Origin: Nitrososphaeria archaeon
GTDB lineage: Archaea; Thermoproteota; Nitrososphaeria; Nitrososphaerales; JAAOZN01
DNA length: 64,000 bases
NCBI GenBank assembly: GCA_029775855.1
Contig: JARVJZ010000001.1
Coordinates: 256,001 to 320,000 of the forward strand
Direction of reading: 5' to 3'
Numbering within the stretch: position 1 is the first letter of the stretch; each line of letters starts with the position of its first letter. A program made the translations under genes and the position numbers. Shown one piece after another: positions 4,117 through 50,235 of the stretch. A model generated the notes under the pieces. That model made no database searches. It saw only the letters and a program-made list of their open reading frames with translations, and was not told where the DNA came from.

Positions 4117-4425
4117 GTGATGGAAGGGTATAGAGAGAAGGTGTTAAGGACATTCAAGGAGCTTAGAGCTGCGCTTGAACAGCTCGATTCTGATGCCGGC
4201 ATTAGGGTTAAGGGTTCTTTAGCGGAATTTGATGATGGCGGCTTTATTTTCATAAGCAAAGCAGAGGAGGGGTTTATAATCAATATATGTGATAGCACAA
4301 AGGATGATAACGGTGTTCTTATCCCGAGCAGAAAGGAGAAGTGGTTAAACCTTAAAAGCGTAGCAGAGGTTATGGATTTCATCTTGAAGTCTGCCAAACG
4401 CCCTCTTAAAGCATACCTCTATTAA
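4117..4425 (+). CDS. hypothetical protein
   Basis: 102-aa ORF filling the gap between cysS and the LLM gene. Confidence 0.6.
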   Translation: MMEGYREKVLRTFKELRAALEQLDSDAGIRVKGSLAEFDDGGFIFISKAEEGFIINICDSTKDDNGVLIPSRKEKWLNLKSVAEVMDFILKSAKRPLKAYLY

Positions 4426-5366
4426 CCGCTAAACTTTGATATGACGCCTTCATATAATAAGTCTAAGGTTCCTTCATCATAGAAGTCTGGAAGGAAGAAT
4501 ATGAAGCGTTCAAACCCTAGCTCAGCATAAGTGTTTATAGCGGCAACCCAATCTTCGCTGCTCCCACATATATGAGGCTCGACTCCGATGTTAAGCGACT
4601 TAGCCTTAGCAAAAGCTTTCTCTCTTGACTTGTCAAGCACACCTACCCAGTGTAAAGATCTTCTTATGCTCTTAGCATCCCTACCTATGCTTCTACAGTG
4701 CTCATCAAGTATACTATTGAGCTGCTTAACCCTCTCTACGCTACCATTATAATTGCTCCAATCAGCGTATTGAGCCACAACTTTAAGCGTCAGCCTACCA
4801 CTTCCACCAACAGTTATCGGAGGATGAGGATGCTGTATGGGTTTAGGGTAGCAGTAAGCATCCTTTATCGAATAGTATCTTCCTTTAAAGCTAGGTTTTT
4901 CTTCGCACCACATCTTAGTTATTACCTCAAGACTTTCTTTCAGCATCAATATCCGAGTTGAAGCCTTAGGGTAGTCATAGCCGTAGCTTCTATATTCTGC
5001 CTCATACCAGCCGGCACCTATACCAAACTCCAGCCGCCCTTGTGAGATATTATCTAGGGTCGCGGCCATCTTAGCTACCAACGCGGGATTACGGTAAGAG
5101 TTACAAAGCACAAGCATACCAAGCCTAACTTTACGCGTTATAGGTGCAAGGTAGCTTAGCAGCATCCACCCCTCAAAGCACGGTCCGATACTCTCTGCCT
5201 TATATTGAATGAAGTGATCATAGAGCCAGATCGACTCAACCTTAGAGTTCTCACACCACCTCACAAAGTCAAATATCGTTTCTAAATACTTCTCCTTTGG
5301 AAGAGTATTAAGCTCACCATGCCAGCCTTGAGGCACCATCAACCCAAAAAGAACCAACTCTACCAT
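4422..5366 (-). CDS. LLM-class (luciferase-like) oxidoreductase, probably F420-dependent
   Basis: WLYDHF, RNPALVAKMAATLDNISQGRLEFGIGAGW, PKPIQHPHPPITVGGSG. Confidence 0.85.
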   Translation of the reverse strand: MVELVLFGLMVPQGWHGELNTLPKEKYLETIFDFVRWCENSKVESIWLYDHFIQYKAESIGPCFEGWMLLSYLAPITRKVRLGMLVLCNSYRNPALVAKMAATLDNISQGRLEFGIGAGWYEAEYRSYGYDYPKASTRILMLKESLEVITKMWCEEKPSFKGRYYSIKDAYCYPKPIQHPHPPITVGGSGRLTLKVVAQYADWSNYNGSVERVKQLNSILDEHCRSIGRDAKSIRRSLHWVGVLDKSREKAFAKAKSLNIGVEPHICGSSEDWVAAINTYAELGFERFIFFLPDFYDEGTLDLLYEGVISKFSG

Positions 5367-5385
5367 CCATCAACAAACCAGAGAT

Positions 5386-6231
5386 TTAAGAGTTAAGCTG
5401 TTTAGCAGCCTTCACGAGGTTACTTAACAGCATTGTAATCAACATAGGCCCCAAACCACCTGGGACTGGCGTTATGGCTGAAGCTCTCTTCAACATATCG
5501 TCAAAGTCTACGTCGCCTACAACTTTGCCCTCAAGGTAGTTGTTTCCAGCGTCTATTATGACCGCTCCAGGTTTTATATGCACGCTTTTAATCAGCTTTG
5601 GCTTCGCTACATCCACTAAAAGCAGATCTGCTTCAGAGACGCAGCTTGGGACTGATGCTAGATCTTTAGGGTGAAGCCTAACTTTGGCGCCTAGATTCAG
5701 TGAAAGGGCTGCAAACGGTCTGCCTAAGATCACGCTGTCTCCCAAGATGTGTATGGTGTTTCCGTCGAAGTTGAATGATGACTGCTTGGCTAAATCTAGC
5801 GCCGCTAATGCGCCTGCTGAGACAAAACATTCTCTGCCAGCAAGTAGTAGACCGAGGCTTGATGAAGTGATGCCATCTACATCCTTCTCCACTGCGATTT
5901 GATCTATAGCTTTCTGTTCGTTGATATTCTTTGGTAGGGGTAGTTGGATGAGTATGCCGTGCACCTTCGGATCTTCATTTAGAGAGCGTATCATCTCATG
6001 TAATGCGCTCTGCTCTGTCTGCTCTGAAAGTGTAATTACTTTAGCTTCTGCGCCTATCCCTAGGCATGCTTCTGCCTTCCGCTTCACATAGTTTGCTGCG
6101 CCCCCGAGGTCTCCAACATGGATTAAAGCTATGGTGGGCACGATTCCCTTTTCTCTGAGTTTAGCGACTTGTTTAGAAAGCTCGCTTCGAATCTCTTTCG
6201 AACGCTCTCTTCCATCAAGTATCTTAACCAA
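5386..6231 (-). CDS. folD: FolD-family methylenetetrahydrofolate dehydrogenase/cyclohydrolase (atypical NADP site)
   Basis: YVKRK, HGILIQLPLP, KDVDG, GDVDF, ITPVPGGLGPM; GRS replaced by GDS. Confidence 0.88.
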   Translation of the reverse strand: MVKILDGRERSKEIRSELSKQVAKLREKGIVPTIALIHVGDLGGAANYVKRKAEACLGIGAEAKVITLSEQTEQSALHEMIRSLNEDPKVHGILIQLPLPKNINEQKAIDQIAVEKDVDGITSSSLGLLLAGRECFVSAGALAALDLAKQSSFNFDGNTIHILGDSVILGRPFAALSLNLGAKVRLHPKDLASVPSCVSEADLLLVDVAKPKLIKSVHIKPGAVIIDAGNNYLEGKVVGDVDFDDMLKRASAITPVPGGLGPMLITMLLSNLVKAAKQLNS

Positions 6232-6313
6232 AACCCGCTCTCCACTTAGCGGAAGGAAGCTCTATTTTAGCTTTGAAAAACTCTAATAGTGATATGTTGT
6301 AAAGGTAGTTGGT

Positions 6314-7138
6314 TTGCTTAAAGTTGTATTCGCCAAAATAGGCATGATAGGCATAACCCCGATGATCGAAGGCTTGTTCGATGAAAGAGCTGTGCGCACA
6401 GATATTGTTGTTAGGTCGGTCTACTCAGGTTGTAAAATGGAGCCTTTTGACGCTAAAGAAGTGGTTGAAGCGGCTTTAGCTTTTAAACCTAACCTTATAA
6501 TCTTCGTATCCCCTTACTTACAAGGTGAAGGACCTTTAGAAGCGGTTGACCTCCTTTCTAAATGTGGTGTGCCTACTTGTGTTATAACCAATACTGCTTC
6601 AAAGGCAGTCTTAGATAAGTTAGAGATGAACAGTATCGGCTACATAGTTGTAGATGCAGATCCCATGATAGGTGCTAAAAAAGAGTTTCTTGACCCAGTT
6701 GAGATGTGCCTATTCAACAGTGACATAATAAGGGTTCTAGCGCTAACAGGGGTCTACAGAGCCATACAAGTTGAAGTGGATAAGATTATCAACTCCATCA
6801 AAAAAGGTGTTAAACCATATCTTCCTACGCTTATCTTAGATAAAGAGAAAGCTCTCAATTACGCTAACTACCAGAACCCATATGCTGCCGCTAAAGCGAT
6901 GGCTGCTTTCGAAGCCGCTAGGCTCGTCGCTGAACTTTCTACGCGAGGCTGCTACGCTGTCAAAGATGCGGTGAAGGCGCTTTACTATGTCTCAGCTTCA
7001 CACGAAGTTATGCGTTTAGCTTCGCTGCTAGCCGATGAAGCTAGAGAGATAGAAAAGGGCAAAGATAGGGTTGAGAGGCTGATACACTTAGCTGACGGAA
7101 CAGTAATCAGAAGGCTCAAGCTCTTAGATGGGTTATAA
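6314..7138 (+). CDS. mtd: F420-dependent methylene-H4MPT dehydrogenase (Mtd) family, divergent
   Basis: DERA.R, SG.KM.P, DPMIGA..EFLDP.EM..FN.D, NPYA.AKAMAA, A.LADEAREIEK are Mtd signature blocks. Confidence 0.88.
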   Translation: MLKVVFAKIGMIGITPMIEGLFDERAVRTDIVVRSVYSGCKMEPFDAKEVVEAALAFKPNLIIFVSPYLQGEGPLEAVDLLSKCGVPTCVITNTASKAVLDKLEMNSIGYIVVDADPMIGAKKEFLDPVEMCLFNSDIIRVLALTGVYRAIQVEVDKIINSIKKGVKPYLPTLILDKEKALNYANYQNPYAAAKAMAAFEAARLVAELSTRGCYAVKDAVKALYYVSASHEVMRLASLLADEAREIEKGKDRVERLIHLADGTVIRRLKLLDGL

Positions 7139-7357: not shown

Positions 7358-8254
7358 CTACCACCATTTACAGCTATGTTTTGGAGTTTTCTCATTCTTA
7401 GCTGGCTTTCTGAATACAAATATGTGTTCGTGCATGATCTTATAGAAGTCGTAGTATCTGCCTCGCCATCTCCCTCGATCTGACATGACATTATGCTGTA
7501 ATTTTATTATATCCTCTTTCAAAACAAACCCAGCGTCTAAAAATTGCTGCATTACTCTGAAGGCTATAGGGATGAAGTGTCTTTGCTTCCGTGTATCACC
7601 TATAAGGATGCCGCAATATTTATTCTCCTTTAGCACTCTGTAGGATTCATCAGCTATCTTTCTCATAGCGCGCAAATACTCTATAAGATTAAGATTAGAG
7701 ATGTCTCCTTCTATTCGTTTCTTGCTGTAAGGTATGATATAAGCGTATGGTGGATGAGTGACTATAAGGTCAATACTTTCATCCTTAATCTCACTAAGTT
7801 TTCTTGCGTCACCCACATAGGTTCGTAGGATCGGTTCTTTGTAGTCTGAATTAAGGGGATTATAAGTGAAGTTTAACCTATCAAGTGTAACCATTATTGC
7901 ATCGGGATTTATATCAACACCTATGCCATTTCTTTGTAATAATTTGCATTCGACTAAAGTGGTGCCGCTGCCAACCATCTGGTCTAAGACCCAGTCACCT
8001 TTGTTTGAATACTTCAGAATCAGGTTACGGGGAATAAATGGTGAGAAGTTCCCCCGGTAGTCACCTATGTGAGTAGCCCAATCACCTCTATCTGGGAAAC
8101 TCCACACGGTCGTGCCTTCTAGCATGTAATCTTGCTTCGGTGCATATCGCCCAATCTTCCAAGAACCGTGAAGCTTGACTCTATGCCCCTCTATCAAGAC
8201 TTCTTTGTTATTCTTTAGGAATGTGATGTAATCTTCGTGTGTTATTTCTTTCAT
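7358..8254 (-). CDS. amino (m4C/m6A) DNA methyltransferase, apparently orphan
   Basis: Motif I VLDQMVGSGTT and motif IV THPPY; VWSFP.RGDWATH, YRGNF.P; start taken at MKEIT (ORF track extends to 8293). Confidence 0.82.
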   Translation of the reverse strand: MKEITHEDYITFLKNNKEVLIEGHRVKLHGSWKIGRYAPKQDYMLEGTTVWSFPDRGDWATHIGDYRGNFSPFIPRNLILKYSNKGDWVLDQMVGSGTTLVECKLLQRNGIGVDINPDAIMVTLDRLNFTYNPLNSDYKEPILRTYVGDARKLSEIKDESIDLIVTHPPYAYIIPYSKKRIEGDISNLNLIEYLRAMRKIADESYRVLKENKYCGILIGDTRKQRHFIPIAFRVMQQFLDAGFVLKEDIIKLQHNVMSDRGRWRGRYYDFYKIMHEHIFVFRKPAKNEKTPKHSCKWW

Positions 8255-8422
8255 ATCTGCTACCCTTCTACACCCATCTTCTTTACTAATCACCTTTTTC
8301 TTCTACATATATCTCTCTTTAAGATAGGCAATTAATGTTGCTCTTTGGCTGCTTTAGCAAAATTGTGATAATAATTAGTATATGAATGTTTATTTCATAC
8401 ACATATAATCAATATAATGCAG

Positions 8423-9472
8423 TTAGGCGATCTTAACACCCTTGACTATGACCCCTCTGCCTCTAACAACTTTACCTATAGGTTTTGCGTCAAAACCGTG
8501 TCTTTTAAAGATCTTCCCAACCTCGTCTACACAATCACCTCTGGTTACTACACAGAAGCCTACCCCCATGTTGAATGTGCGATACATTTCTTCATTACTT
8601 AACTCACCTTCTTTTTGAATCAGCTTAAAGATAGGCTGAGGCTCAGGCGGATCGTCGAGATTAAACCCTAGATTTGAGCCTTTGGTTAAACGAGTAAGTT
8701 TAGAGAAAGCACCTCCAGTGATATGCGCTAACCCTGAGACGTAGATCTTCTTTCTTAGGATTTCGAGCACGGGTTTAACATAGATTAATGTAGGCTCGAG
8801 TAGTTCATCCCCTAGACTACGGTTTAACGGTGGAACTGTCTCATCTAAACTGTATTTGTTTAAGAGAAGCTTCCTAGCAAGGGTTAGACCGTTTGAATGT
8901 ATGCCTGAGCTGTTTACACCAACGACCACTTCACCAACATCTATCTTCTCCCCAGTCACCAAATTATCCTTCTCAACCAAGCCTACTACCGCGCCGGCTA
9001 GATCGAAGGTTCTCTCATCTTCAGCCAAAAGGTCTGGTAGAACAGCGGTTTCACCTCCTACAACCGCTACATCAGCCATAGATGCGCCTTTAGCAACGCC
9101 TTCAGCCACCTCTTTAATCAGATGCTCATCAGGCTTCTTTAAGGCGAGGTAGTCTAGCAATGCTAGCGGCTCAGCACCCACACAGATGATGTCGTTGACG
9201 TTCATAGCTACGCAGTCTATGCCTACGGTGTTGTATCTGTTTAGCTTCTGCGCTATAATTACCTTTGTGCCAACCCCGTCTATGTGCAAGGCAAGGAGCC
9301 TACCATCATTCAAATCTATTAGCCCAGCGTAGTGCCCTATGCCATAATAGACTGAGCCGACTTTCCCTCTTCTGAATTTGAAGGTTGATGAGAATATCTT
9401 CGCAAGCTCGTTTTGTCTACGCTTTATCTCATTTACATCCACTCCAGCCTCGGCGTAGGATTTGGGCTTCAT
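8423..9472 (-). CDS. purM: phosphoribosylformylglycinamidine cyclo-ligase (AIR synthase)
   Basis: SYAEAGVD, DGVGTK, GGETA, SSGIHSNG, HITGG, TFNMGVG. Confidence 0.96.
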   Translation of the reverse strand: MKPKSYAEAGVDVNEIKRRQNELAKIFSSTFKFRRGKVGSVYYGIGHYAGLIDLNDGRLLALHIDGVGTKVIIAQKLNRYNTVGIDCVAMNVNDIICVGAEPLALLDYLALKKPDEHLIKEVAEGVAKGASMADVAVVGGETAVLPDLLAEDERTFDLAGAVVGLVEKDNLVTGEKIDVGEVVVGVNSSGIHSNGLTLARKLLLNKYSLDETVPPLNRSLGDELLEPTLIYVKPVLEILRKKIYVSGLAHITGGAFSKLTRLTKGSNLGFNLDDPPEPQPIFKLIQKEGELSNEEMYRTFNMGVGFCVVTRGDCVDEVGKIFKRHGFDAKPIGKVVRGRGVIVKGVKIA

Positions 9473-9511
9473 CCCTCTGTTGGTATGCTGCCCTCTTATT
9501 TTACTACTCCG

Positions 9512-10360
9512 CTAAAGGCGTCTTCCAGATATGAGTTCGTAGGCTGTTATGTATCTTCTTAAGGTTTCTTCTACAAGGTCTGGAGGCAGATTTGGTGGTG
9601 TAGGTGGCTGCAGACCAGCCTTCCTAGCCTCCTCTAACTTATCTCTAAATGAAACCTTAATCAGCCAGTCTCTAACGATCTGTTTATCGTAGCTCTTCTG
9701 CTCCTCTCCAACTTTATACTCTGACTTTAGCCAAAGTCTAAATTCGTCTGGACCGAGTGAGTCTGCGAGTATGATCTTGCCTTCTTTATCTCTTCCGAAC
9801 TCAAACTTTACATCAGCGATTATAAAGCCAGCTCTTTCGGCTTGCTTCTTCATCTCAGTGTAGAGTTTGATTGAGTTTTCTTCGAGTTGGTTGTATTCCT
9901 CTGCTGTTAGAAGGCCTTGTGCAACCGCATCTACTTTAGTTATGGGTAGGTCTTTGGTTTCAGACTTTGTCGTTGGGTCGAAGACTGGTTCGGGTAGTTC
10001 TTCTGCAAGCTTCAGATCTTTATCTACCCTAATCAGACCCTTTTTTATTCGCTCGTAGTAGCTTCCGTAATTGTATCCTCTAACCACACACTCTAAAGGT
10101 ATCATATCTAGCTTCTTAGTAATCATTTTGTTTGGATGGATTATTTCGAGCATGTGGTTAGGGTAAGGTAGCACTCTGAACCAAAATTCGCTGAATCTGC
10201 ATAGCACCTCACCCTTTCTGGGTATGGGTGTGGGAAGCACCACATCAAACGCTGAAACTCTATCTGAGAAGACGAACATCAACCTATCTTCGCCATATTG
10301 GTAGACATCCTTAACTTTACCACTTTTTATGAACCTTAAGTTTGATGATGGTGCAGCCAT
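9512..10360 (-). CDS. purC: SAICAR synthetase
   Basis: SGKVKDVY, DRVSAFD, ECVVRGY, DVKFEFG, SYDKQ. Confidence 0.95.
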   Translation of the reverse strand: MAAPSSNLRFIKSGKVKDVYQYGEDRLMFVFSDRVSAFDVVLPTPIPRKGEVLCRFSEFWFRVLPYPNHMLEIIHPNKMITKKLDMIPLECVVRGYNYGSYYERIKKGLIRVDKDLKLAEELPEPVFDPTTKSETKDLPITKVDAVAQGLLTAEEYNQLEENSIKLYTEMKKQAERAGFIIADVKFEFGRDKEGKIILADSLGPDEFRLWLKSEYKVGEEQKSYDKQIVRDWLIKVSFRDKLEEARKAGLQPPTPPNLPPDLVEETLRRYITAYELISGRRL

Positions 10361-10800
10361 TAAAGCTTCCCTCTTCTGTAAAGCATAACCTTCTCCTGTA
10401 TGCTTGGATCCTTTAACCCTAAGATCTCAGCTGCAAGCAGAGCCCCATTCTCTGGGTTATCAACCCCTACACATGCTACTGGCACTCCTCTGGGCATCTG
10501 AACGATGGAGAGCAGTGAATCAAGACCAGCAAGTGCTTTATTAATTGGGACACCTATTACAGGCTTAACGGTTCTTGATGCTATGTAGCCTGGCAAGTGA
10601 GCTGATAATCCAGCGATGGCTACGAACACCTCAGCCTTAGAGTTTGAGATGTATATGTCTAAATCCTCGGGGTTTCTGTGCGCTGATAAATAGGCTACAT
10701 CATACTTTAGGTTTAGCTTACTTAGAACATCCTCTGCTCTCTTGACATATTCAGCATCACTTTTAGAGCCTGCGATGATGCAGATGGGTGCTTCACCCAT
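10360..10800 (-). CDS. purE: N5-CAIR mutase / AIR carboxylase
   Basis: GSKSD, SAHRNP, AGLSAHLPG, PVIGVP, QMPRGVPVA. Confidence 0.95.
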   Translation of the reverse strand: MGEAPICIIAGSKSDAEYVKRAEDVLSKLNLKYDVAYLSAHRNPEDLDIYISNSKAEVFVAIAGLSAHLPGYIASRTVKPVIGVPINKALAGLDSLLSIVQMPRGVPVACVGVDNPENGALLAAEILGLKDPSIQEKVMLYRRGKL

Positions 10801-10873
10801 ACAAGGAATGTCTTAGACTCTGTTTAAAAAATGTTTGCAATCCTTAAATTGCACTTTCTAACCTAAATTCAGT

Positions 10874-12285: not shown

Positions 12286-13782
12286 TTGGGTTTGAATGGC
12301 GTCGAGTACATAAATAGAGCTTTAAACCTTTCATCACTTGGAATATATATTCACGCAATCACGATAGCTATAGTGTTAGGCTTCTCCTTAGCACTACTCA
12401 TATTAGAGTTAATAGGTATAAGGCGAAAAGACGCCCTTCTCTTAAAAGCCGCTAAAACAATATCCTTGGTTATTCTCATCGTCTTCGTCTACGGAGCAGC
12501 CACTGGCACACTTGTCGAATTTGGGCTACTACAAGTTTGGAGTGGTGTGCTTTTGGTGGCTGGGAGCTTTGCCTTCATACCCTTCTACCTCGAGCTCATA
12601 GCATTCGTTTTAGAGGCTGCTACACTTATAGCCCTCTACTACACCTGGGGTAAGTTTCGCAACCCTTGGTCCCATTGGATGTTAACACTCACATACACCT
12701 TCGCAGCCTTCCTCTCAGGAGCTCTTATAACATCTGTTAACTCTTGGATGCAAGCACCTTGGGGTGTTGGAGATGTTGTTAAAATGATCTATCCTTGGGC
12801 ACCTACTTATGGTCCTCTGGTTGTTAATGTCGATTTCCTCATAAGTTTGAAGGATGCTTTAGTTTCAGCAAGTGGTAGTGTAGGCGGAGGAGTTGCGTTG
12901 GTAAATCCAGAGATTCTAAGCACATTATCCGCTAAATTCGGTGAGCTACTTAACGACCCTTGGATAGCTTTGAAGAGCCCCTACTCTAATCAAAGCATAC
13001 TTCACCAGCTTTTAGCATCATCTTCAGTAGGCGTATTCTGGGCTGCTTCAGGCTTCGCTCTTCTAATACTTAGAAAAAAGGGAGAGAGCGAATACTACTT
13101 CAAGGCTGTAAAGACGCTTGCTGCCATAGGTGCGGTTCTGGTCTTGGCTCAAGGAGCAACAGCCCATTGGATGGGTGCCGTTGTGTATGAATATCAACCA
13201 ACAAAATTTGCTTTAATAGCTGGCTTAGATGTCTCAAAACCAGATCCAATAGTTGGGCTTACAATGTTTGGTGACCCAAATTACATCTTTGACGGCTTTG
13301 ATAAATTAGTTGAAGCGGCTAAGAATCATCCTAACCCTAATCTTATTATAGGCGGTGTTTCTGCTGCTGAAATCGCAGTAGCTGATACTGTTGCAGCATC
13401 TAAAAACATGAATCTTGTTTACCCGATGTATACGACTAAGGTTGCTGTAGCTGGTTTAAGCCTACTTATTTCCCTTGCAATCCTTTCAATCTTCGTCTTC
13501 AGGAGATTCTGGGAGGGGAGAAGAAGTCTTCTAGTTTATCTGGCTTTGACTATGGGGTTGTTCACGCCGCTTATGTCTGGTTTAGGTTGGGCTGTAAGAG
13601 AGATCGGGAGAAAGCCTTGGACAGTATATGGACTCGTCTATCCTCATGAGATCATTACACCACTAGGAGGCTCAACATGGGTTGCTACCGTTGTCATAGG
13701 AGGCTTAGTTGTTGGCTTCATATTGATGTGCTTAACGATCTACCTAGCCTTAACTAGGAGGTTAAAGATAGGAGGTAAATAA
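12286..13782 (+). CDS. cydA: cytochrome bd-type quinol oxidase subunit I (CydA)
   Basis: N-terminal heme His (YIHAI), NSWMQAP, LHQ, QPTKFA, GWAVREIGRKPWTVYG. Confidence 0.9.
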   Translation: MGLNGVEYINRALNLSSLGIYIHAITIAIVLGFSLALLILELIGIRRKDALLLKAAKTISLVILIVFVYGAATGTLVEFGLLQVWSGVLLVAGSFAFIPFYLELIAFVLEAATLIALYYTWGKFRNPWSHWMLTLTYTFAAFLSGALITSVNSWMQAPWGVGDVVKMIYPWAPTYGPLVVNVDFLISLKDALVSASGSVGGGVALVNPEILSTLSAKFGELLNDPWIALKSPYSNQSILHQLLASSSVGVFWAASGFALLILRKKGESEYYFKAVKTLAAIGAVLVLAQGATAHWMGAVVYEYQPTKFALIAGLDVSKPDPIVGLTMFGDPNYIFDGFDKLVEAAKNHPNPNLIIGGVSAAEIAVADTVAASKNMNLVYPMYTTKVAVAGLSLLISLAILSIFVFRRFWEGRRSLLVYLALTMGLFTPLMSGLGWAVREIGRKPWTVYGLVYPHEIITPLGGSTWVATVVIGGLVVGFILMCLTIYLALTRRLKIGGK

Positions 13783-13783
13783 G

Positions 13784-14893
13784 ATGGACCCGCTACCCGC
13801 GCTACTGGTTTTAGCTTTCGTGTTGTTGGTGCACCTAACATTTGTAAACATAAACATAGGCTTAGGCTTCCTTAGCGTTGCAGCAAGATGGAGATCTAAA
13901 AGCGACCCAAAGGCTGAAGAATTATCAAAGCACTCGGTTAAATTTGTCGCAGCGAACGAAGTGGTCTCAGGAGTCTACGGCACACTCATCACTGTAATCC
14001 TATTCGGATTCTGGACAGGTTTTGTCAACGTTGTGGTGCAGGTACTCTTCTTCGCTTTACTTATCAGCGTGATAGCTATAATCATTAGGTTGACATCCAT
14101 CGCGGCATACTGGTATACTTGGGGCAGAATCGGGGTTAATGCACACCTTATTATAGGCTTGATCATGGCTATTTCTGGTCTCTTCATACCAGCAGGCTTC
14201 AGATACATCTTCGCATTCATGAATAACCCTGCTGGACTTATGCGTATATCTCCTTTGGAGGGGGATGTGGCTGCTGCTCTCTCTAACCCCCTTTATCCGC
14301 CACTGCTACTACATACTTGGGTCGGCGCTCTGTCAATAGGCTTCTTAGCTGCTGCCACTGGATTCGCTTGGGCTTCTAAGCGCAGCGAGTATCTCAGAGG
14401 CTGGGCTGCTAAAACAGCTCTAGTCGGGGCGCTTCTAATAATTCCACAGGGAATTGTGGGCTTCTGGTATTGGTCAAGCCTCAGCAGCCACTCACCAATC
14501 TTGTTCAACGCGCTCAACATTGGGTTGATAAGCGGAGTTTCTGCGCAGACGAATGTCTCACACTCTTTTCTCGCGATGGTTTTGATCGGCCTTTACTTAC
14601 TAACAGCTGGTCTCATCTACTATGCTGAGCCAAGTAGGATACGGTTAGCCTACACACTAGCACCTTTATCCATACTATCACTATACTTCGGTGAAATAAC
14701 TCAAAACTGGGGTAGGATGCCCTATCTCATATTGCAAGGAGACACAGGTTTAGATGTGAATCTTTTCGTGAATAAGTTGGTGTATATAGATGCAGCGACT
14801 ATAATGATAGCCATAGCACCTATTGCTGTGATAACTATAGGGTTTGTTGCTCTCCTCTACCACTACCTAGTTAAAGGCTTCATGGAGAGTTAA
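13784..14893 (+). CDS. CydA-homologous second subunit (CydA') of archaeal cydAA' oxidase
   Basis: Polytopic, VHLTFVN, FMNNPAG, LLHTW, WGRMPY echo CydA motifs; follows cydA directly. Confidence 0.8.
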   Translation: MDPLPALLVLAFVLLVHLTFVNINIGLGFLSVAARWRSKSDPKAEELSKHSVKFVAANEVVSGVYGTLITVILFGFWTGFVNVVVQVLFFALLISVIAIIIRLTSIAAYWYTWGRIGVNAHLIIGLIMAISGLFIPAGFRYIFAFMNNPAGLMRISPLEGDVAAALSNPLYPPLLLHTWVGALSIGFLAAATGFAWASKRSEYLRGWAAKTALVGALLIIPQGIVGFWYWSSLSSHSPILFNALNIGLISGVSAQTNVSHSFLAMVLIGLYLLTAGLIYYAEPSRIRLAYTLAPLSILSLYFGEITQNWGRMPYLILQGDTGLDVNLFVNKLVYIDAATIMIAIAPIAVITIGFVALLYHYLVKGFMES

Positions 14894-25216: not shown

Positions 25217-25849
25217 ATGCGGCGTAGAGACCTTCTTAAACTAACCTTTACAGCCGCTCCCATATTACTTCTACCAGCATCATCTGCACTACCCCAGCGG
25301 AAACGCTACGCTATGTTGATTGACGTCGAAAGATGCTATGGTTGTATGGCTTGTGTTGCTGCATGCGCAGCTGAGAATAATGTGCCTATTGGCGTCTTTA
25401 GAACTTGGGTTGAAAGGTACGTTAGAAAGGATGGAAATGTAGTATTTGTACCTAAGCAGTGTAATCACTGCGAGAATCCTCCTTGTGTTAAACCTTGTCC
25501 TACTGGCGCCACTTTCAAGAGGGAAGACGGTCTTGTGCTCATTAACGACGAAATATGTATAGGTTGTGGAGCCTGCATCCAAGCTTGCCCTTATGGTGCC
25601 AGATTCCCGAACCCTGTAAAGGGTGTTGCTGATAAATGCACTTTTTGCGAACATAGGTTGGCAAACGGGTTGTTACCAGCTTGCGTAGAAGCTTGCCCAA
25701 CGACCGCCAGAATCTTTGGAGACCTTAATGACTCAGAAAGTGAGATAAGTAAGATAGTTGAGTCATCTAATGTGCAAGTTTTGAAGGTATGGGCTCACAC
25801 TGAGCCTAAGATCTACTACAAGAGTCTACCTACGGAGGCTGATCTCTGA
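25217..25849 (+). CDS. ttrB: Tat-exported 4x[4Fe-4S] subunit (TtrB-like)
   Basis: RRRDLLK Tat motif; CYGCMACVAAC, CNHCENPPC..PC, CIGCGACIQACP, CTFC. Confidence 0.85.
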   Translation: MRRRDLLKLTFTAAPILLLPASSALPQRKRYAMLIDVERCYGCMACVAACAAENNVPIGVFRTWVERYVRKDGNVVFVPKQCNHCENPPCVKPCPTGATFKREDGLVLINDEICIGCGACIQACPYGARFPNPVKGVADKCTFCEHRLANGLLPACVEACPTTARIFGDLNDSESEISKIVESSNVQVLKVWAHTEPKIYYKSLPTEADL

Positions 25850-26964
25850 TGAGCCTGAGTGCACCTCTATTTCCCAACGAGCTCGCTGAACCTATCCTTT
25901 GGCACCCAGTCATTTTTGCATATGCCCTCGTCATCTCCGGTGCTGATCTAATCATACTAGCTTCGCTGGCATACATCTCAAGAAGGATGATGAAGGCGAT
26001 ACCTTTACTCCTTGTGCTCGGAGTCTCATTCTTTTCAGCGGCGCTGTTAGGTCCTCTTGCAGACCTGCGACAACCTTCACGTGCCTCGCTAATATACTCG
26101 TTAGCGCACCTATTCCCAACAGCGACAAATCCTGGATTCTCATTTATAGCATTGTACGCCAACCTTTGGCTGCTACTGTTAATCCTAAGTATAGCCTTTC
26201 TGCTCATTTACCAGTCGTATCCCATGCACCTCAAGTCGTTGGAGGGTGGTAGGTTGAAAAGCCTCTACAAGGTGTTTTCTCTCGGTGTTAGTGATGGGGA
26301 GAGATACAGGAGGCTCGCTTCCCTCATCACTGTAATCGCTATCTTAACGATCATACCAGCTGTGCTGTGGGGAGTTTATCCATCTGTGTTACTGGTCTTT
26401 CAGACTTGGATCTTCCTTTGGCGAAGCTGGGTTATTTTACCAGTGATCTTCTTTGCCGACACCTTCGTTGCATCTACAGCTGCAGCTCTTCTAGTCTACT
26501 TCATCATCAAGTTGGGTAAGCTGGATCAAGAGGTGGTAAGCCCTCTACTTAAGATACACTCTGCTGGCTGCGTTTCGGTCACAGGGCTGTTAGGTGTGCA
26601 GCTTCTGCTCTGGAACCAGTGGTTTGAAGAATCAGCATTATACCCAGCATTCAATGTCGTTGTACCTATAATCTACTTTGTTATAGCGACTCTACTACTC
26701 TCATTCCTTTTGGCTTTAGCTTCATTGAAAGTTCCTAGGTTAAGTATAATAGTTTCAATAGTTGCTCTGGTAGGCGTCGTAATGAATAAGTGGAACACGT
26801 TAGTGAATGGTCAGCTCATTTCAAGAACAGGCATGGGTTTGTTTGATCTACATCTGCCAACAGACTGGCTTCTGACAACAATTTCACCTATAGCTGCGGC
26901 TATATTGATCTTCGTTATTCTCTCATCACTCTTCCCATTGGAGGTGAAAGAAGTTGGTAAGTAG
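25849..26964 (+). CDS. ttrC: NrfD/PsrC-type membrane anchor (TtrC-like)
   Basis: Polytopic, GPLADLRQPSRA; lies between the B and A subunits. Confidence 0.8.
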   Translation: MSLSAPLFPNELAEPILWHPVIFAYALVISGADLIILASLAYISRRMMKAIPLLLVLGVSFFSAALLGPLADLRQPSRASLIYSLAHLFPTATNPGFSFIALYANLWLLLLILSIAFLLIYQSYPMHLKSLEGGRLKSLYKVFSLGVSDGERYRRLASLITVIAILTIIPAVLWGVYPSVLLVFQTWIFLWRSWVILPVIFFADTFVASTAAALLVYFIIKLGKLDQEVVSPLLKIHSAGCVSVTGLLGVQLLLWNQWFEESALYPAFNVVVPIIYFVIATLLLSFLLALASLKVPRLSIIVSIVALVGVVMNKWNTLVNGQLISRTGMGLFDLHLPTDWLLTTISPIAAAILIFVILSSLFPLEVKEVGK

Positions 26965-29900
26965 AAGAGGGTTCGTTAAAGGTATTATTGGCTTAGCCGC
27001 TGCAGGCACATTCGCGGCTGGCTACGCTCGAATAGTGGAGGAGATGGTAAAACCCACATACACACCCATACAGCCAGACCCAACTATCGGTGATAAGGTG
27101 AAATACGTTTACAGCTCTTGCCTCGGATGCAATGTGAGGTGTGGCATAAGAGCGAAGGTTGTTGAGCGAGAGGGTGTTAGTGTTGTTGAGCGAATAGAGG
27201 GGAACCCCTATCACCCATATAATAGGCTTGTAAACCCGTCTTCACAGTACACCAGATTTGACCCACTACCATACAGCACACCCGCTGTTAAGAGCTTAAA
27301 ATACGCTGGCACACTATGCGCAAGGGGGCAAGACGGCATACACTACCTTTATGACCCTTATCGTATTAAATCGCCTTTAAAGAGGGCTGGAGCAAGAGGA
27401 AGTGGTAAGTGGAAAAAGATAAGCTGGAGCCAACTTATCAAGGAGGTAGTTGGAGGCGGTGTAGTGGAGGAGACGGGTGAGAGAATACCAGGCCTAAAAG
27501 AGATCTTTGTATACGGCATACTTAGAGACGCTGGCATACAAGATCCTAACAAGATATTAAGCGAAATTAAAAAGGACATAGACTCAATAGTTCAGAACGC
27601 ACCAAAGCTTACAGCAGACGAGTTAAAAGACGAAATACAAAAGTTCAAAGACAAGTGGTCAAAGCAGCTGAGCGAAAATAGTGTAAAACTAGAGCAGATA
27701 CTCATCAACCCAGACATGCCAGATTTGGGATTTAAATCAAACCAACTAGTTTTCGTCAGAGGTAGGGGGCAAGCCCACGCGGACGACTTCTATCAACGCT
27801 GGACCTACGCCTTTGGAAGTGTAAACTGGCTTAGGCACACTTCAGCCTGCCAACTAGGCTTCTACTGCGGAAACAGAATATGGGCTGGCACAACAGACCT
27901 GAGCCCAGATGTCAGAGGAGCTAAGGTCTTGATTATGGCTGGAGCTCAAATAGGTAGACTACACCCTGGCGCTACTGGCCAAGGTTTGATTATTGAGCGT
28001 GCAGCAAAAGGCGAGTTGAAGGTCTTCTATGTTAATCCAGTGTCGCCACGTGGGGATTGTGGCGGCAATTTCGAGTGGGTGCCTATAAAGCCGGGTAGTG
28101 ATGCAGCCTTAGCCTTGGCTATAGTGAGGTGGATCTTTGATAATAAGAGGTTCAATAAAGCCTTTCTTGAATCTCCAAACGAGGAGGCTGCAAAATCTAA
28201 AGGTGAGGTAGTATATACTAATGCTACTTGGCTTGTGGTAACAGAGCCTAACCATGCTAAAGAAGGTGTATTCCTTAGGGCAAGCGACTTGGGCATAGGT
28301 GATAGCAGTAAGTACGTTGTATATGCTGATGGTTTTAAGGCGCATACAGATGTGAAGGCAGCTGAGATACTCTATAAGGGTAGAGTAAAGCTCGCCTCAG
28401 GCGAAGAGGTTGAAGTTAAGACAGCCCTTCAGATACTCAACGATGAAGCTGCAAGCAGGAGCCTGGATGAATGGAGCGCAATATGTGGCGTGCCTGTTCA
28501 AACCATCATACGTATGGCAGAGGCTTTCACAAGTGTAGGTAGAGCAGCCTCAACATACATACACCGAGGCATAGCGATGCACCCTCAAGCAGAATATAGT
28601 GTGTGGGCATATAGAGCGCTAGATCTGCTTATCGGAAACTACTTCGCTAAAGGAGGTGTCATGGGAAGAGCGTCAACAACCAACTTCAACGGATACCTTT
28701 ACAACGTCGGCACGTCTAGCTTCGGTGAGCCTGTTAGATTTGGCCCATATATAGATCGCCACGGCGTGGTTTATGAAAGTACGTTAGAGTATTGGTTAAA
28801 GAGCAAGTCTGGTTTATCACCATATCCAGCTAAAAGGCCCTGGTATCCTCTTACCCCAGAAGAGAGCTATACCGAGTTGTTTGCAGGAATCAGCGAGGAA
28901 TATCCATACCCTATACGAGCACTATTCCTCTACTATGCGAACCCAGTTATATCAGCCAACTATGGGTTAAAGTTCATCGAAGTTCTTAAGGATACACAGA
29001 AGCTGCCCCTCTTTGTTGCTATAACTACATCCATAAATGAGACATACTTGTACGCTGACTACATTGTGCCAGACACAACCTATCTTGAGACTGGAACATT
29101 AGGCTGCCAATACCTTTACGCATCTAGCGGTGGGGTATCTTTAGCTGAGAGCTGGAGGACAATGGTCATACCACCTCTAACCGATGAAATTGGCAGAGAC
29201 CCTGCTGGCAGAGTCAGATACGCTTCAATGTGGGAGTTTCTAATCGACATAGCCAAGGCTTTAGGTATGCCTGGGTTTGGTGAAAACGGGATTAAAGGCG
29301 CTACCGGAGGTAAATACGAAGGGAAGAGCTTTCCGCTAAACAGCCTCTGGGACTACATTATGCGTGTGTACGCTAATGGAGCTATGGATGCGGTGCGCAG
29401 AAAGATCGTGCCTAGCGAAGTGCCTAAGGAAGATGTAGAGTTTGTAGAAAGTAATTATCCCATAGCGGAATATAGAGACATAATACCAGACGAGTGGCCT
29501 TATGTAGCCTATGTCCTAGCAAGAGGAGGAGTATTCACAAGCTACAAAGACTCTTACGATGAAAAAGGCTTCGTAAAACGAACCCCCCCTCGAACTTTAT
29601 TAGAATTCTGGGATGAAAGGCTTGCACAAACAAGAAACAGCATCACAGGTAAACGCTTCTACGGTGGGCCAAAATACTTCGAACCCTCAACCTACGCACC
29701 TATAGCTGAAGAGGCTGGTGAGAGATGGCAGCCAGGCACTCCGCTGAGGAGGATATGGAGTGAAGCAGAGTATCCGATGCTTATAGTGCCTAATGGTAGC
29801 CCACTCTTCACTAAGCATCGCAGCCAATTCTACTATTGGCTTAAGCAGATCATGCCCAGAAACTTCGCTGTTATACATCCAGACGACGCATCAAAGATAA

Positions 29901-30388
29901 ATGTAGCCACTGGAGACATCATTAAGATAGAGACGCCAAATGGCTCTCTTGAAACACCAGTGTTGGTGGAGCCTACAGTAGCTAGAGGTGTTATAGCTAT
30001 TCCAGTGGGAATGGGCAGGTGGGTTGAAAATGTTGTAAGCAAGCCTAAGTACTTCCAAAGTTCAAATCTGCAGAAGCACATTGATGAGTTGCCTAATACT
30101 GTGGTGATACCGGAGGAAGCTGTGAATCCTGTTAAGAAGCTGCCTAAGGTTGTTAAGAAGCTACTCTTTACAAAGTCGCAAGCATCTTATTATGATAATG
30201 GGCTTTCATACGATGAGTGGAGGTTTAATGGTATCACACCAACACCAATCTCTTCAAACGATCCTTCACTAGGTGGTTGGCCTCTGCTGTCTTGGCTAGG
30301 TGCTTCACAAGTCTACTTCTATACTCCAGCTAGAATATCTAAGACTGGTAGATCTGAGAAGATCTGGTTTACAGAAGCAGTTTGGTAG
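26954..30388 (+). CDS. ttrA: Tat-exported molybdopterin oxidoreductase, TtrA/SrdA clade
   Basis: SRRGFVK Tat, CLGCNVRC...GNPYHP...LCARG, HTSAC (Cys ligand), ADYIVPDTTYLE; BCA gene order. Confidence 0.8.
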   Translation: MVSRRGFVKGIIGLAAAGTFAAGYARIVEEMVKPTYTPIQPDPTIGDKVKYVYSSCLGCNVRCGIRAKVVEREGVSVVERIEGNPYHPYNRLVNPSSQYTRFDPLPYSTPAVKSLKYAGTLCARGQDGIHYLYDPYRIKSPLKRAGARGSGKWKKISWSQLIKEVVGGGVVEETGERIPGLKEIFVYGILRDAGIQDPNKILSEIKKDIDSIVQNAPKLTADELKDEIQKFKDKWSKQLSENSVKLEQILINPDMPDLGFKSNQLVFVRGRGQAHADDFYQRWTYAFGSVNWLRHTSACQLGFYCGNRIWAGTTDLSPDVRGAKVLIMAGAQIGRLHPGATGQGLIIERAAKGELKVFYVNPVSPRGDCGGNFEWVPIKPGSDAALALAIVRWIFDNKRFNKAFLESPNEEAAKSKGEVVYTNATWLVVTEPNHAKEGVFLRASDLGIGDSSKYVVYADGFKAHTDVKAAEILYKGRVKLASGEEVEVKTALQILNDEAASRSLDEWSAICGVPVQTIIRMAEAFTSVGRAASTYIHRGIAMHPQAEYSVWAYRALDLLIGNYFAKGGVMGRASTTNFNGYLYNVGTSSFGEPVRFGPYIDRHGVVYESTLEYWLKSKSGLSPYPAKRPWYPLTPEESYTELFAGISEEYPYPIRALFLYYANPVISANYGLKFIEVLKDTQKLPLFVAITTSINETYLYADYIVPDTTYLETGTLGCQYLYASSGGVSLAESWRTMVIPPLTDEIGRDPAGRVRYASMWEFLIDIAKALGMPGFGENGIKGATGGKYEGKSFPLNSLWDYIMRVYANGAMDAVRRKIVPSEVPKEDVEFVESNYPIAEYRDIIPDEWPYVAYVLARGGVFTSYKDSYDEKGFVKRTPPRTLLEFWDERLAQTRNSITGKRFYGGPKYFEPSTYAPIAEEAGERWQPGTPLRRIWSEAEYPMLIVPNGSPLFTKHRSQFYYWLKQIMPRNFAVIHPDDASKINVATGDIIKIETPNGSLETPVLVEPTVARGVIAIPVGMGRWVENVVSKPKYFQSSNLQKHIDELPNTVVIPEEAVNPVKKLPKVVKKLLFTKSQASYYDNGLSYDEWRFNGITPTPISSNDPSLGGWPLLSWLGASQVYFYTPARISKTGRSEKIWFTEAVW

Positions 30389-30391
30389 GAG

Positions 30392-30931
30392 ATGCTGAGA
30401 GAGGCTGCGGTTGGTAGGTTCAAGTTTTATTCAGCTCTTTCATATGTGCTTTGGGCCAAGGAGAATGGTCAGAGTGAGAGCTTAATAGATGTTGAGAGAG
30501 ACCTAGCCGCAGTTGAGATAACTTCCCAAAGTATAAAGGAGTTCCTAGTCAAGGATAGAAAGATACCTCTGGTTAGAGAATGCGTTAGCCGCTTTCCTGA
30601 AGACTATGCTAAGATGCTCACCAACTTCTATTCAGAGAACGGTTTTGAAGCGTCAACAATACAACCCGACCATCCCGCTGCGATGTTAGCCTTCACCGCC
30701 AGCCTAATATTTAAGGAGGTTGAGGACTCAAAAAATGTTGTGAAGTATTGGCGGGTTGAGCATAGGTTCATAAAGACATATTTGATGGAGGCGCTTCTCT
30801 GCTTGAGAAGTCGGATACCCTCTACTTTCACACAAGCTATAGTGGAGGCTGTTAGTATAGATCTCTCTCTCCTTTACGAGGCTTTGAAGAATGTTTCAAG
30901 CGATTCCGATGATGCCTCTATGGTACATTAA
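30392..30931 (+). CDS. TorD/DmsD-like redox enzyme maturation chaperone
   Basis: FY..NGF...QPDH motif; directly after the Mo subunit. Confidence 0.7.
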   Translation: MLREAAVGRFKFYSALSYVLWAKENGQSESLIDVERDLAAVEITSQSIKEFLVKDRKIPLVRECVSRFPEDYAKMLTNFYSENGFEASTIQPDHPAAMLAFTASLIFKEVEDSKNVVKYWRVEHRFIKTYLMEALLCLRSRIPSTFTQAIVEAVSIDLSLLYEALKNVSSDSDDASMVH

Positions 30932-43903: not shown

Positions 43904-44386
43904 ATGCGAAATAAAAATCCTAGCAGCATAAAAAAGAGTCGTAGAAACGCCATCAAGAGTATACTAATCTTAGCTGGAGTGGCTGTTTTCAGCGCGCTCA
44001 TCTTTAACAGCTTCTTTGCAAAAGAAAGAAGTGTTGAGCTCAAAAAGCTACGAATCACCAATATAAAAGATGTTCCGAAGGGTACAGCTTACACATTTAA
44101 CGGCAGTTTATTAGATCAAAATCTTAAAGAAATATCTGGGCCTTTCATATTGATTCATCTACATAATGGGGAAATAAAGGCATTCTCCGCTGTATGCACA
44201 CACCTTGGGTGCACGACAAAATATAGTCAAGATACGAATATGATTGAGTGCCCTTGTCATGGTGGAAGATTTAACCCTCAGACTGGTGCTGTCGTCTCAG
44301 GTCCGCCGAATAAACCTCTACCAGAGGTTAATTTGACAGTAGATTCTAATGGTGATGTATATGCCATAGGTGTGAGAACACAATAG
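43904..44386 (+). CDS. membrane-anchored Rieske [2Fe-2S] protein (copy 1)
   Basis: SRRNAIK Tat + TM, CTHLGC...CPCHGGRF, GPP..PL. Confidence 0.9.
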   Translation: MRNKNPSSIKKSRRNAIKSILILAGVAVFSALIFNSFFAKERSVELKKLRITNIKDVPKGTAYTFNGSLLDQNLKEISGPFILIHLHNGEIKAFSAVCTHLGCTTKYSQDTNMIECPCHGGRFNPQTGAVVSGPPNKPLPEVNLTVDSNGDVYAIGVRTQ

Positions 44387-44434
44387 TGAGATTTATTAAT
44401 TATATGCAGAGCGCTTAAACTCTTTTGTGGAGTG

Positions 44435-45439
44435 TTAGTCTTCAAATCGTTCAAGTATTCTTTGCTTTTTTAAAGCGAATATATCTGTGTAAAGCGGCGT
44501 TCCTCCCCTTTTACGCTGCAAGTGGTTGTATGCGCTTAACGCTGCTCTAGCACCATCTCCAGCCGAGATTACTATCTGTTTATATCTGCTGTCTGTTATA
44601 TCGCCGGCTGCGAAAACTCCTGCTCTGCTCGTGCAGCAGTCTCGATCTGTCTTTACTTTACCATTTTCGTCGAGTTCAACAAATCCTTTAAGGAAATCTG
44701 TCTTGGCTTCAAAGCCTAGCTCAATAAAGAGATAGTCAACCTTGATTTCACGTTGAGCTTCTCCAAATGGTCCTTGGACGATGATGGATTCTAGTCTATC
44801 TGAGCCTTTAACCTCTGATACAGATGAGAGAGTTATTAATTCAACGTTTTTCTTATCTTCTAAGAATCTTGTCAGATCTATTGGCTCACCTATTCCACCC
44901 CACCAATAAATCAAATATACCTTTTCAGCAACTCTAGAAAGTAATGATGTAGATAGGAGAACCCTTTCTCCGAAGCCTACTACAGCAACAACTTTACCTT
45001 TGCATTCCTCGAGATCACAATAGGCACAGTAAGATATACCTCTACCTTCATATTTCTCCTCATCTTTAACCTCTAAGCGCTTAGGAGTTTCGCCGAATGC
45101 CAATATGAGTGTATAGCTCTCTATTTCCCCACGTGTAGTCAGTATGTGGAAAATGCTGTTTCCATCCTCCCATACTTTAAGCACTTCTGCAAACACAAAA
45201 TTAGCACCATAGCTTCTAGCCTGCTGCTCAAATCTGCTCATTAGCTCTAACCCTGTTATCGATAGAAAACCAGGGTAGTTTTCGATGCTTCTACGTGAAT
45301 AAGGTGAGTTGATTAGCGCTCTCCCTCCTATCTCTCTTGTTATTATAATTGTGCTTAATCCGAGCCTTGAGGTGAAGATTGCTGCAGAGAGCCCAGCGCT
45401 ACCTCCGCCTACCACCGCAACATCATATATCTCCACCAT
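44435..45439 (-). CDS. thioredoxin reductase-like flavoprotein (NADPH motifs degenerate)
   Basis: GGGSAG, IENYPG, GISYCAYCD, GVFAAGD, KQIVISAGDG. Confidence 0.85.
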   Translation of the reverse strand: MVEIYDVAVVGGGSAGLSAAIFTSRLGLSTIIITREIGGRALINSPYSRRSIENYPGFLSITGLELMSRFEQQARSYGANFVFAEVLKVWEDGNSIFHILTTRGEIESYTLILAFGETPKRLEVKDEEKYEGRGISYCAYCDLEECKGKVVAVVGFGERVLLSTSLLSRVAEKVYLIYWWGGIGEPIDLTRFLEDKKNVELITLSSVSEVKGSDRLESIIVQGPFGEAQREIKVDYLFIELGFEAKTDFLKGFVELDENGKVKTDRDCCTSRAGVFAAGDITDSRYKQIVISAGDGARAALSAYNHLQRKRGGTPLYTDIFALKKQRILERFED

Positions 45440-45563
45440 TTTCTATACCCAACTAATCAGAAATAAAAAAAGTAAAAAGGTTACTATTAAACTTTATATT
45501 AAAAATTCAATGAAATATAGTTAACATTAAATACTCCTCAAGCAAAGAGAATAATAGATATCT

Positions 45564-48146: not shown

Positions 48147-48149
48147 ACC

Positions 48150-48761: not shown

Positions 48762-48770
48762 GACCCTCTT

Positions 48771-49544: not shown

Positions 49545-49733
49545 AGCTTAAATCTCCTATAAAAGAGTTTTGGCTTAGTAAAAATTGATACATAATATTC
49601 TTCGTAGATTGTATTGGTTATATTGGTGTGTATATTGTAGTATTTTTGAATGTTCTGATATGAATTGACATCCAAGACTAAAAGCAAAAATGTTATATGC
49701 AGAATTTGTAAGAGTAATAAGTTCGGATAGAAT

Positions 49734-50222: not shown

Positions 50223-50235
50223 AAGGTGTGTTGGA

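Follow-up and report, generated by a model that had tools for sequence, protein, structure and literature searches.

Genome surveys count Mtd, the F420-dependent methylene-tetrahydromethanopterin dehydrogenase, and FolD, the methylene-tetrahydrofolate dehydrogenase/methenyl-tetrahydrofolate cyclohydrolase, apart from one another, the first being treated as an indicator of the methanopterin pathway and the second as one of the folate pathway. What does it mean, then, when genes of both families are transcribed away from one another out of a single short spacer? Such an arrangement occurs in a 64,000-nucleotide stretch of a Nitrososphaeria archaeon (contig JARVJZ010000001.1 of assembly GCA_029775855.1, positions 256,001 to 320,000; hereafter the window), with a gene for an LLM-class (luciferase-like) oxidoreductase following folD. 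The reading that we prefer, tentatively and at somewhat below an even chance, is a co-inherited, divergently transcribed one-carbon (C1) node in which a NAD-type archaeal FolD stands beside an F420-dependent Mtd, with an LLM oxidoreductase of the TIGR03560 family appended. The features in question are:

4422..5366, - strand: LLM-class F420-dependent oxidoreductase (TIGR03560, Rv1855c family), 314 aa, ATG start
5386..6231, - strand: FolD-family methylene-tetrahydrofolate dehydrogenase/methenyl-tetrahydrofolate cyclohydrolase, archaeal non-NADP subtype, 281 aa, TTG start
6232..6313, no strand: divergent intergenic spacer of 82 bp between folD and mtd, read from the sequence
6314..7138, + strand: Mtd-family (F420-dependent methylene-tetrahydromethanopterin dehydrogenase) protein, divergent clade, 274 aa, TTG start

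All three genes are intact open reading frames (ORFs), and database proteins of the same length match the LLM, FolD and Mtd products at 99-100% identity (P0241, P0121 and P0001-P0003). The spacing given in the original prediction, 82 bp between the divergent genes and 19 bp between LLM and folD, is correct, and the three genes form a real unit. Two A/T-rich, TATA-like octamers lie back to back in the spacer, TAAAATAG on the - strand at 6262-6269 and TCTAATAG on the + strand at 6282-6289, and are putative promoter elements; the LLM gene is probably co-transcribed with folD.

The linkage appears to recur among close relatives, a check that the original prediction had proposed. Database searches returned 28 close matches to Mtd (73-99% identity, next best at most 53%), 28 to FolD (74-100%, next best at most 50%) and 9 to the LLM protein (73-99%, next best at most 51%), and we refer to these relatives as the window's clade. 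Taking equal size of the longest contig reported for each match as the sign of a shared contig, 6 of the 28 Mtd-clade matches coincide with a FolD-clade match (contigs of 2,020; 5,048; 9,055; 19,359; 544,111 and 1,085,782 bp), and 6 of the 9 LLM-clade matches coincide with a FolD match, an Mtd match or both (5,008; 9,055; 9,963; 12,031; 15,775 and 544,111 bp). On the smallest of these contigs, at 2,020 bp, mtd and folD would necessarily be adjacent. The folD-LLM pairing is found on five equal-size contigs (5008, 9055, 9963, 12031 and 544111 bp), and the LLM gene is missing from four that carry both Mtd and FolD (2020, 5048, 19359 and 1085782 bp). Close relatives at 73-99% identity thus appear to share contigs for the genes of the module. 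The clade itself is absent from the GTDB species representatives searched here, where a scan built on an alignment of the clade alone gave 599 pattern matches and none confirmed.

More distant archaea show how unusual, and how old, the pairing is. A broader scan of the GTDB species representatives yielded 80 mtd loci outside the clade, the best at 51% identity. Searches with tblastn placed folD within 10 kb of mtd in six of them (L002, L003, L007, L023, L067 and L078), every one labelled Bathyarchaeia, Bathyarchaeota or "uncultured archaeon". At each of these loci mtd stands head to head with an operon of fhs (formate-tetrahydrofolate ligase) and then folD. For the remaining 74 loci we counted by hand the nearest ORF on each side of mtd, and neither FolD nor Fhs is among these 142 proteins. 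The neighbours with a tetrahydromethanopterin (H4MPT) context were Ftr (26), a FwdD/B-like molybdopterin subunit (19), MtdA/B-like proteins (5), FrhB (4) and an MptA-type cyclohydrolase with a pterin-binding protein (2). Mtd genes thus typically adjoin methanopterin-pathway genes, and a minority adjoin folate genes.

The Bathyarchaeia fhs-folD loci resemble the window in their divergent mtd and folD, in carrying the atypical FolD subtype described below and in their sister position in both gene trees; they differ in that fhs lies between mtd and folD and in that no LLM gene follows folD. In the window's clade fhs no longer intervenes, and an LLM gene has joined folD in the closer relatives. 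Because the pairing recurs both in relatives and in another archaeal class, the adjacency of mtd and folD is more than chance.

Some of the other mtd neighbourhoods deserve mention in their own right. In five Bathyarchaeia loci (L050, L065, L071, L072 and L076) the neighbour of mtd has a Pfam Mpt_N domain, the N-terminal domain of MtdA/B-type dehydrogenases; this neighbour is about 570-590 aa long in four of the five, and in L071 and L076 the opposite flank of mtd is taken by FrhB. In two metagenome-assembled genomes (MAGs), L004 (Nitrososphaerales) and L014 (Methylarchaceae), the genes flanking mtd encode GCHY-1, a GTP cyclohydrolase of type IB, and a pterin-binding protein about 525 aa long, which suggests clustering of mtd with pterin-cofactor synthesis in these two. 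The Mtd match of L043 (a Culexmicrobium MAG, ~10001-10816) contains an in-frame stop.

Gene trees bear out the common origin of the pair. In a quick Mtd tree of 88 sequences, from which L043 was left out for its stop, the window's clade (support 100) and the six Mtds linked to fhs-folD come out as sister groups, with 85 in the SH-like approximate likelihood ratio test (SH-aLRT). A more careful tree of 53 rows, holding all 15 folD-linked Mtds and 38 of the 73 others picked to cover each major branch, places all 15 on one side of a branch with ultrafast bootstrap (UFBoot) 96 and SH-aLRT 92. The FolD tree, a quick tree with several long branches, comprises 72 rows (9 of the 29 clade members and every second canonical match); here the window's clade, together with three sequences that we call near (support 97), is sister (SH-aLRT 91) to an atypical group that holds all six mtd-linked FolDs, and the canonical FolDs are separate (support 100). 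Since both trees put the window's clade beside Bathyarchaeia genes, with the folD-linked Mtds forming one lineage, the pair looks co-inherited from one ancestral arrangement. The tree comparison called for by the original prediction therefore comes out in favour of the linkage, which we regard as supported, conserved and ancient.

At first glance one might still argue that the adjacency has no functional meaning, with mtd and folD neighbours by descent and the LLM protein an unrelated F420 enzyme. The rarity of folD near mtd (only 6 of 80 other loci), the differences between the surrounding genes of the Bathyarchaeia and those of the window, and the wide distribution of TIGR03560 LLM proteins, whose substrates are unassigned, are all what this would predict. 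However, the pairing has survived between two archaeal classes at ~40-50% protein identity while other neighbours changed, the Mtd and FolD trees agree, and the two enzymes work at one and the same oxidation step of C1 units bound to a pterin. We therefore judge a meaningless adjacency to be improbable.

What the FolD partner does can be approached through its residues. The protein shares with the canonical bifunctional dehydrogenase/cyclohydrolases (the D/C domain of human MTHFD1 and bacterial FolD; structures 1A4I, 3L07 and 3P2O) both domains (PF00763 and PF02882, E 3.9e-34 and 1.4e-40), the GxSxxxG loop and an E value of 2.5e-57 to 3L07. Unlike them, it falls below the cut-offs of all 25 NCBIfam equivalog models displayed, with a best score of 242.3 bits against a cut-off of 423. 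For the human enzyme, passages of PMC3368264 list 13 NADP-binding residues, of which R173, H196 and S197 hold the 2'-phosphate, and give Y52, K56, Q100, L101, D125, G273 and G276 as substrate and catalytic residues. We mapped these positions by HMMER alignment to the human chain and by a MAFFT alignment. The window's FolD has all seven substrate/catalytic residues (Y48, K52, Q96, L97, D119, G258 and G261, six of the seven invariant in the clade), and the motifs YxxxK, QLPLP and KDVDG are present just as had been noted. The nucleotide site, by contrast with canonical FolD, is altered: it agrees with the human enzyme at 3 of the 13 NADP-site positions, where the majority residues of 70 canonical FolDs agree at 9, and none of the three 2'-phosphate ligands is kept (R173, H196 and S197 read D165, P188 and K189).

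The changes of GRS to GDS and of AVG to DVA that drew attention to this site are confirmed. The change of HSKT to HPKD is right in that His and Ser are lost, but its register was one residue off, as HMMER and MAFFT both align C195-H196-S197-K198 with H187-P188-K189-D190. A further deviation that had gone unremarked is VSAG for PCTP, so that T148 becomes G140. We compared these positions across three sets of FolDs, the 89 comparison sequences being the matches most similar to the query rather than a random sample, and three rows of the atypical set (P0152, P0153 and P0189) grouping with or near canonical FolDs in the tree:

Canonical FolDs among the search matches, n = 70: R173 is R (1.00), H196 is H (1.00), S197 is S (0.99); acid at the K198 position in 0/70
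Atypical archaeal FolDs, n = 25: R173 is L (0.72), H196 is R (0.52), S197 is A (0.52); acid at the K198 position in 19/25
Window's FolD clade, n = 29: R173 is D (0.97), H196 is P (0.90), S197 is K (0.93); acid at the K198 position in 28/29

The majority residues of the window's clade and of the atypical group have T148G, A215D and I238N in common. We use these three states, the acid at K198, the lack of Arg at R173 and the tree placement to recognize an atypical archaeal FolD subtype, a grouping defined in the present analysis, and the window's FolD has them all; Asp at R173 came in with the clade itself and is seen also in one of the three near sequences. Thus, while the NADP site was rightly called altered, with every 2'-phosphate ligand gone, the alteration appears to be mostly a trait of this wider subtype.

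The altered site shows no sign of decay. GDSVILGRP is found in 28 of 29 clade members, and the 13 nucleotide-site positions have a conservation of 0.971 within the clade, against a protein average of 0.908, a level reached by 341 of 10,000 random position sets. We considered a dead dehydrogenase and judged it less likely, given the conservation of the GxSxxxG loop and of the remodelled site. Of the two roles that the original prediction had offered for this protein, a switch of nucleotide to NAD consequently fits the conserved site better than a protein that acts as cyclohydrolase only. The replacement of the 2'-phosphate ligands, the conserved dinucleotide loop and the acid after strand beta2 point the same way, and the window's FolD is probably of NAD type and most likely still bifunctional as a folate dehydrogenase/cyclohydrolase, using NAD instead of NADP. 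NADH-specific FolDs of acetogens are mentioned in a passage of PMC5736913.

An alternative for the same protein is that it acts on methanopterin, as a methenyl-H4MPT cyclohydrolase with or without dehydrogenase activity that sits beside Mtd and replaces or supplements Mch. MtdA, with which one might compare it, has a FolD-like fold and not the Mtd fold. According to PMC9012536, either tetrahydrofolate (H4F) or H4MPT can serve methylotroph MtdA as a substrate, and one Bathy-6 reconstruction labels a single gene "Mtd/FolD" for the step (a passage of PMC11697101). The tight pairing with Mtd, and the retention of the catalytic Lys, Gln and Asp while the nucleotide site was remodelled, would also suit such a role. 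On the other hand, in the sister Bathyarchaeia the gene for a FolD of this subtype immediately follows that for formate-tetrahydrofolate ligase, which is the classical folate order, and all seven of the human folate-substrate residues are kept. Nearby purM, purC and purE genes would fit a FolD working on folate as well, as purine synthesis uses formyl-folate. A methanopterin-dependent FolD is in our view distinctly improbable.

The Mtd partner belongs clearly to its family. It matches PF01993 at 311.8 bits (cut-off 25) and NF002162 at 308.7 bits (cut-off 297) over its full length, and its predicted structure (pLDDT, the predicted local distance difference test score, of 92.9) has as its sole strong Protein Data Bank match the Methanopyrus kandleri enzyme 1QV9, at a template-modelling (TM) score of 0.95, a root-mean-square deviation of 1.7 A and 39% identity (phmmer E 9.7e-59). 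To compare sites, we set the clade (n = 28) against 79 non-clade Mtds and called a position conserved when at least 85% of the 79 agree. By this measure the clade keeps 70 of 88 family-conserved positions, and at 11 another residue is fixed: N68Y, R78V, D93N, P95A, R122K, R123K, F214Y, Y222A, A229S, P257I and K267R. All 28 clade members have Val at position 27, where 73 of the 79 have an acid (D/E), and the loop YLQGE (residues 68-72) replaces N/A/A/L/P, which are present in 71, 59, 44, 58 and 64 of the 79. Arg is found at positions 122 and 123 in 77 and 71 of the 79, respectively. The methanogen motifs from which the original prediction had measured these deviations are essentially correct (four methanogen-labelled loci read GNIG or GNIA, DERADR, (S/G/T)PNPxAPGP and GARREFLDP), and the clade is indeed remodelled; only the change to GMIG means little, because the residue concerned varies among Mtds (N 39, C 22, A 10, Y 4). 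Beyond the 11 changes, among them that in the SPN loop, and the lost acid 27, the window differs from M. kandleri in having folD in place of Ftr/Fwd as a neighbour and in a host that is labelled Nitrososphaerales, has respiratory genes and so is not a methanogen.

With the Mtd fold and most family residues kept, this protein most likely still moves hydride between F420 and a methylene-pterin, and by default we take the pterin to be a methanopterin-type carrier. Under the reading that we prefer, mtd and folD would form an old co-inherited pair acting at the methylene, methenyl and formyl level of pterin-bound C1 units. As both genes are transcribed outward from one 82-bp region, the cell could in this way tie its C1 pool to its F420 and NAD pools together, with the TIGR03560 F420 oxidoreductase probably having joined the folD transcript just in the closer relatives.

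Several observations weigh against this reading and must be set beside it. In 39 of the 74 remaining mtd loci an immediate neighbour has an H4MPT context, unlike the window, and a Pfam search of the 64-kb window found no mch, ftr, fwd, mer, H4MPT-synthesis or F420-synthesis (cof) genes. The stem of the Mtd clade is long (0.85-1.14 substitutions/site over the two trees, 1.14 in the quick one). Six of its fixed changes are non-conservative (N68Y, R78V, D93N, P95A, Y222A and P257I), as is D27V, and positions 68, 93, 95, 122 and 123 lie, by the secondary structure of the model, in the loops after beta3, beta4 and beta5 of the Rossmann-like domain. These loops are the usual ligand edge, and changes there would suit a change of substrate. 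Gene order in the clade relatives is deduced from equal contig sizes and not from the relatives' DNA, and NAD use by the FolD subtype from residue states. Finally, the main text of PMC10640624, a study of mesophilic Thaumarchaeota to which we return below, does not contain "methanopterin", and two of its supplement files contain neither the KEGG numbers of mtd, mch, folD and ftr nor "methylenetetrahydromethanopterin".

Taken the other way, many of these points would favour a substrate change: that Mtd was retuned in this Nitrososphaerales clade to an F420-linked oxidation or reduction of methylene-/methenyl-tetrahydrofolate, leaving FolD as cyclohydrolase and at most a NAD-linked dehydrogenase and, in the full version, with the LLM protein reducing methylene-folate with F420H2. 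The long stem, the 11 fixed changes with five of them in ligand-edge loops, and the lack of H4MPT genes in the window would speak for this. So would the position of the folD-linked Mtds as one lineage beside fhs/folD and not beside Ftr/Fwd, the compaction of the pair to 82 bp in the window's clade, a FolD without any ligand for the NADP 2'-phosphate, and the recurrence of folD-LLM linkage in five equal-size contigs. Yet every Mtd that has been assayed uses H4MPT, to our knowledge. Moreover, at 7 of the 11 changed sites the canonical residue is present in every one of the six Mtds of the sister Bathyarchaeia, whose folate neighbours are the same, so that folD adjacency alone does not imply folate use and the remodelling came after the link to folD. 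The conserved FolD nucleotide site, which shows no decay, likewise speaks against this reading, and so does the LLM protein, without specific likeness to Mer and missing from four of the Mtd and FolD contigs. We consider an Mtd that works on folate unlikely on balance.

The LLM protein was included in that scheme on the strength of a proposed resemblance to Mer, the F420-dependent methylene-H4MPT reductase, with which it shares the TIM-barrel luciferase-like fold family and a probable use of F420. The resemblance goes no further. The protein matches PF00296 at 2.5e-45 and TIGR03560 at 238.7 bits (cut-off 231.4), whereas the Mer models score it at 70.4 bits against 348.7 (TIGR03555) and 70.8 bits against 276 (NF002619), and a comparison with solved structures puts Mer (2.9e-17) no nearer to it than sulfonate monooxygenases or Adf. 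An identity as Mer is therefore rejected. Proteins of the TIGR03560 family are widespread and have no assigned substrate, and linkage of this one to folD recurs, as judged from equal-size contigs, in closer relatives only.

Carrier switches of the kind that an Mtd working on folate would require do have precedents. Passages of PMC9012536 describe MtdA, variants of GlyA, and the exchange of MetF for Mer proposed in ANME-1, which provide models for the crossing of an enzyme from one carrier to the other. A split of dehydrogenase and cyclohydrolase between separate proteins has its precedent in the MtdA and Fch of methylotrophs. These cases differ from the present one in that MtdA uses NADP, unlike Mtd, and in that neither the MtdA/Fch nor the ANME-1 case includes an F420-dependent folate enzyme. 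The part of an F420 review that deals with Mtd (PMC8498797) names "various TACK and Asgard archaea" as its carriers and describes the methanopterin reaction alone, and the corresponding portion of a classification of F420 enzymes (PMC8518648) admits methanopterin dehydrogenases only to the Mtd type. According to passages of PMC10321748, the Bathyarchaeia orders with a tetrahydrofolate branch are also reported with a complete H4MPT pathway. In passages of PMC10640624, FolD and Fhs are counted among the gains of mesophilic Thaumarchaeota other than the ammonia-oxidizing archaea, which are also described as rich in F420 enzymes; a placement of the window's host there, as Group I.1c or Gagatemarchaeaceae, would be conjectural. 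In the searchable literature, with subscription journals outside it, we found no paper on an F420-dependent methylene-tetrahydrofolate enzyme.

The boldest interpretation of these findings is that the Mtd clade acts as a methylene-tetrahydrofolate dehydrogenase dependent on F420, which Nitrososphaerales that respire and are not methanogens would have taken from the methanopterin pathway to serve their folate pool, with the non-NADP FolD serving as cyclohydrolase and NAD valve, the LLM protein perhaps as an F420-dependent methylene-folate reductase, and the whole as an undescribed F420-driven folate C1 route. We hold this to be rather unlikely. Should folate prove to be the substrate of the clade's Mtd, this enzyme would be the first folate dehydrogenase to depend on F420, and pathway calls for many uncultured archaea would need revising. 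Even if Mtd does not work on folate, the conserved Mtd-FolD pair ties the two marker gene sets together in Bathyarchaeia and in this Nitrososphaerales clade, and hints at a link between F420 and folate C1 metabolism. The FolD subtype, which to judge by its residues could not bind NADP in the usual way, calls for a correction of annotation in either case: it lies below the NCBIfam equivalog cut-offs, and its use of NADP is not to be assumed.

Beyond mtd, the window continues with a DNA methyltransferase gene and, starting 1.3 kb from mtd, the purine genes mentioned above:

7358-8293, - strand: N6/N4 DNA methyltransferase gene, between mtd and the pur genes
8423..10800, - strand: purM, purC and purE (purine synthesis; TIGR00878, TIGR00081 and TIGR01162, all above cut-offs)

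The remaining genes of the window are archaeal and respiratory in character, including Nop5/fibrillarin, hydroxymethylglutaryl (HMG)-CoA synthase, cytochrome b, Rieske proteins, two bd-type subunit I genes and two molybdopterin oxidoreductase clusters. The two bd-type genes (12286-13782 and 13784-14893, + strand) adjoin one another and both encode cytochrome bd subunit I (PF01654, 6e-57 and 1.5e-20), with no CydB seen; presumably the pair resembles the CydAA' type of archaeal bd oxidase. Four ORFs at 25217-30931 (+ strand) encode a TtrB-like 4Fe-4S protein, a 371-aa protein without a family, a 1144-aa TtrA-like molybdopterin oxidoreductase that scores far below its cut-off (485 bits against 1750), and a 179-aa protein without a family. 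A second respiratory cluster at 43904-51624, with an unassigned substrate, comprises a Rieske protein, an 860-aa PhsA/Psr-like molybdopterin oxidoreductase, an ArrB/DsrO-like FeS subunit, a second Rieske protein and a cytochrome b, and a thioredoxin-reductase-like gene lies on the opposite strand of this cluster. Lastly, a 585-aa ORF at 54928-56685 (+ strand), without a Pfam or NCBIfam match, stands beside genes for a branched-chain amino-acid ABC (ATP-binding cassette) transporter.

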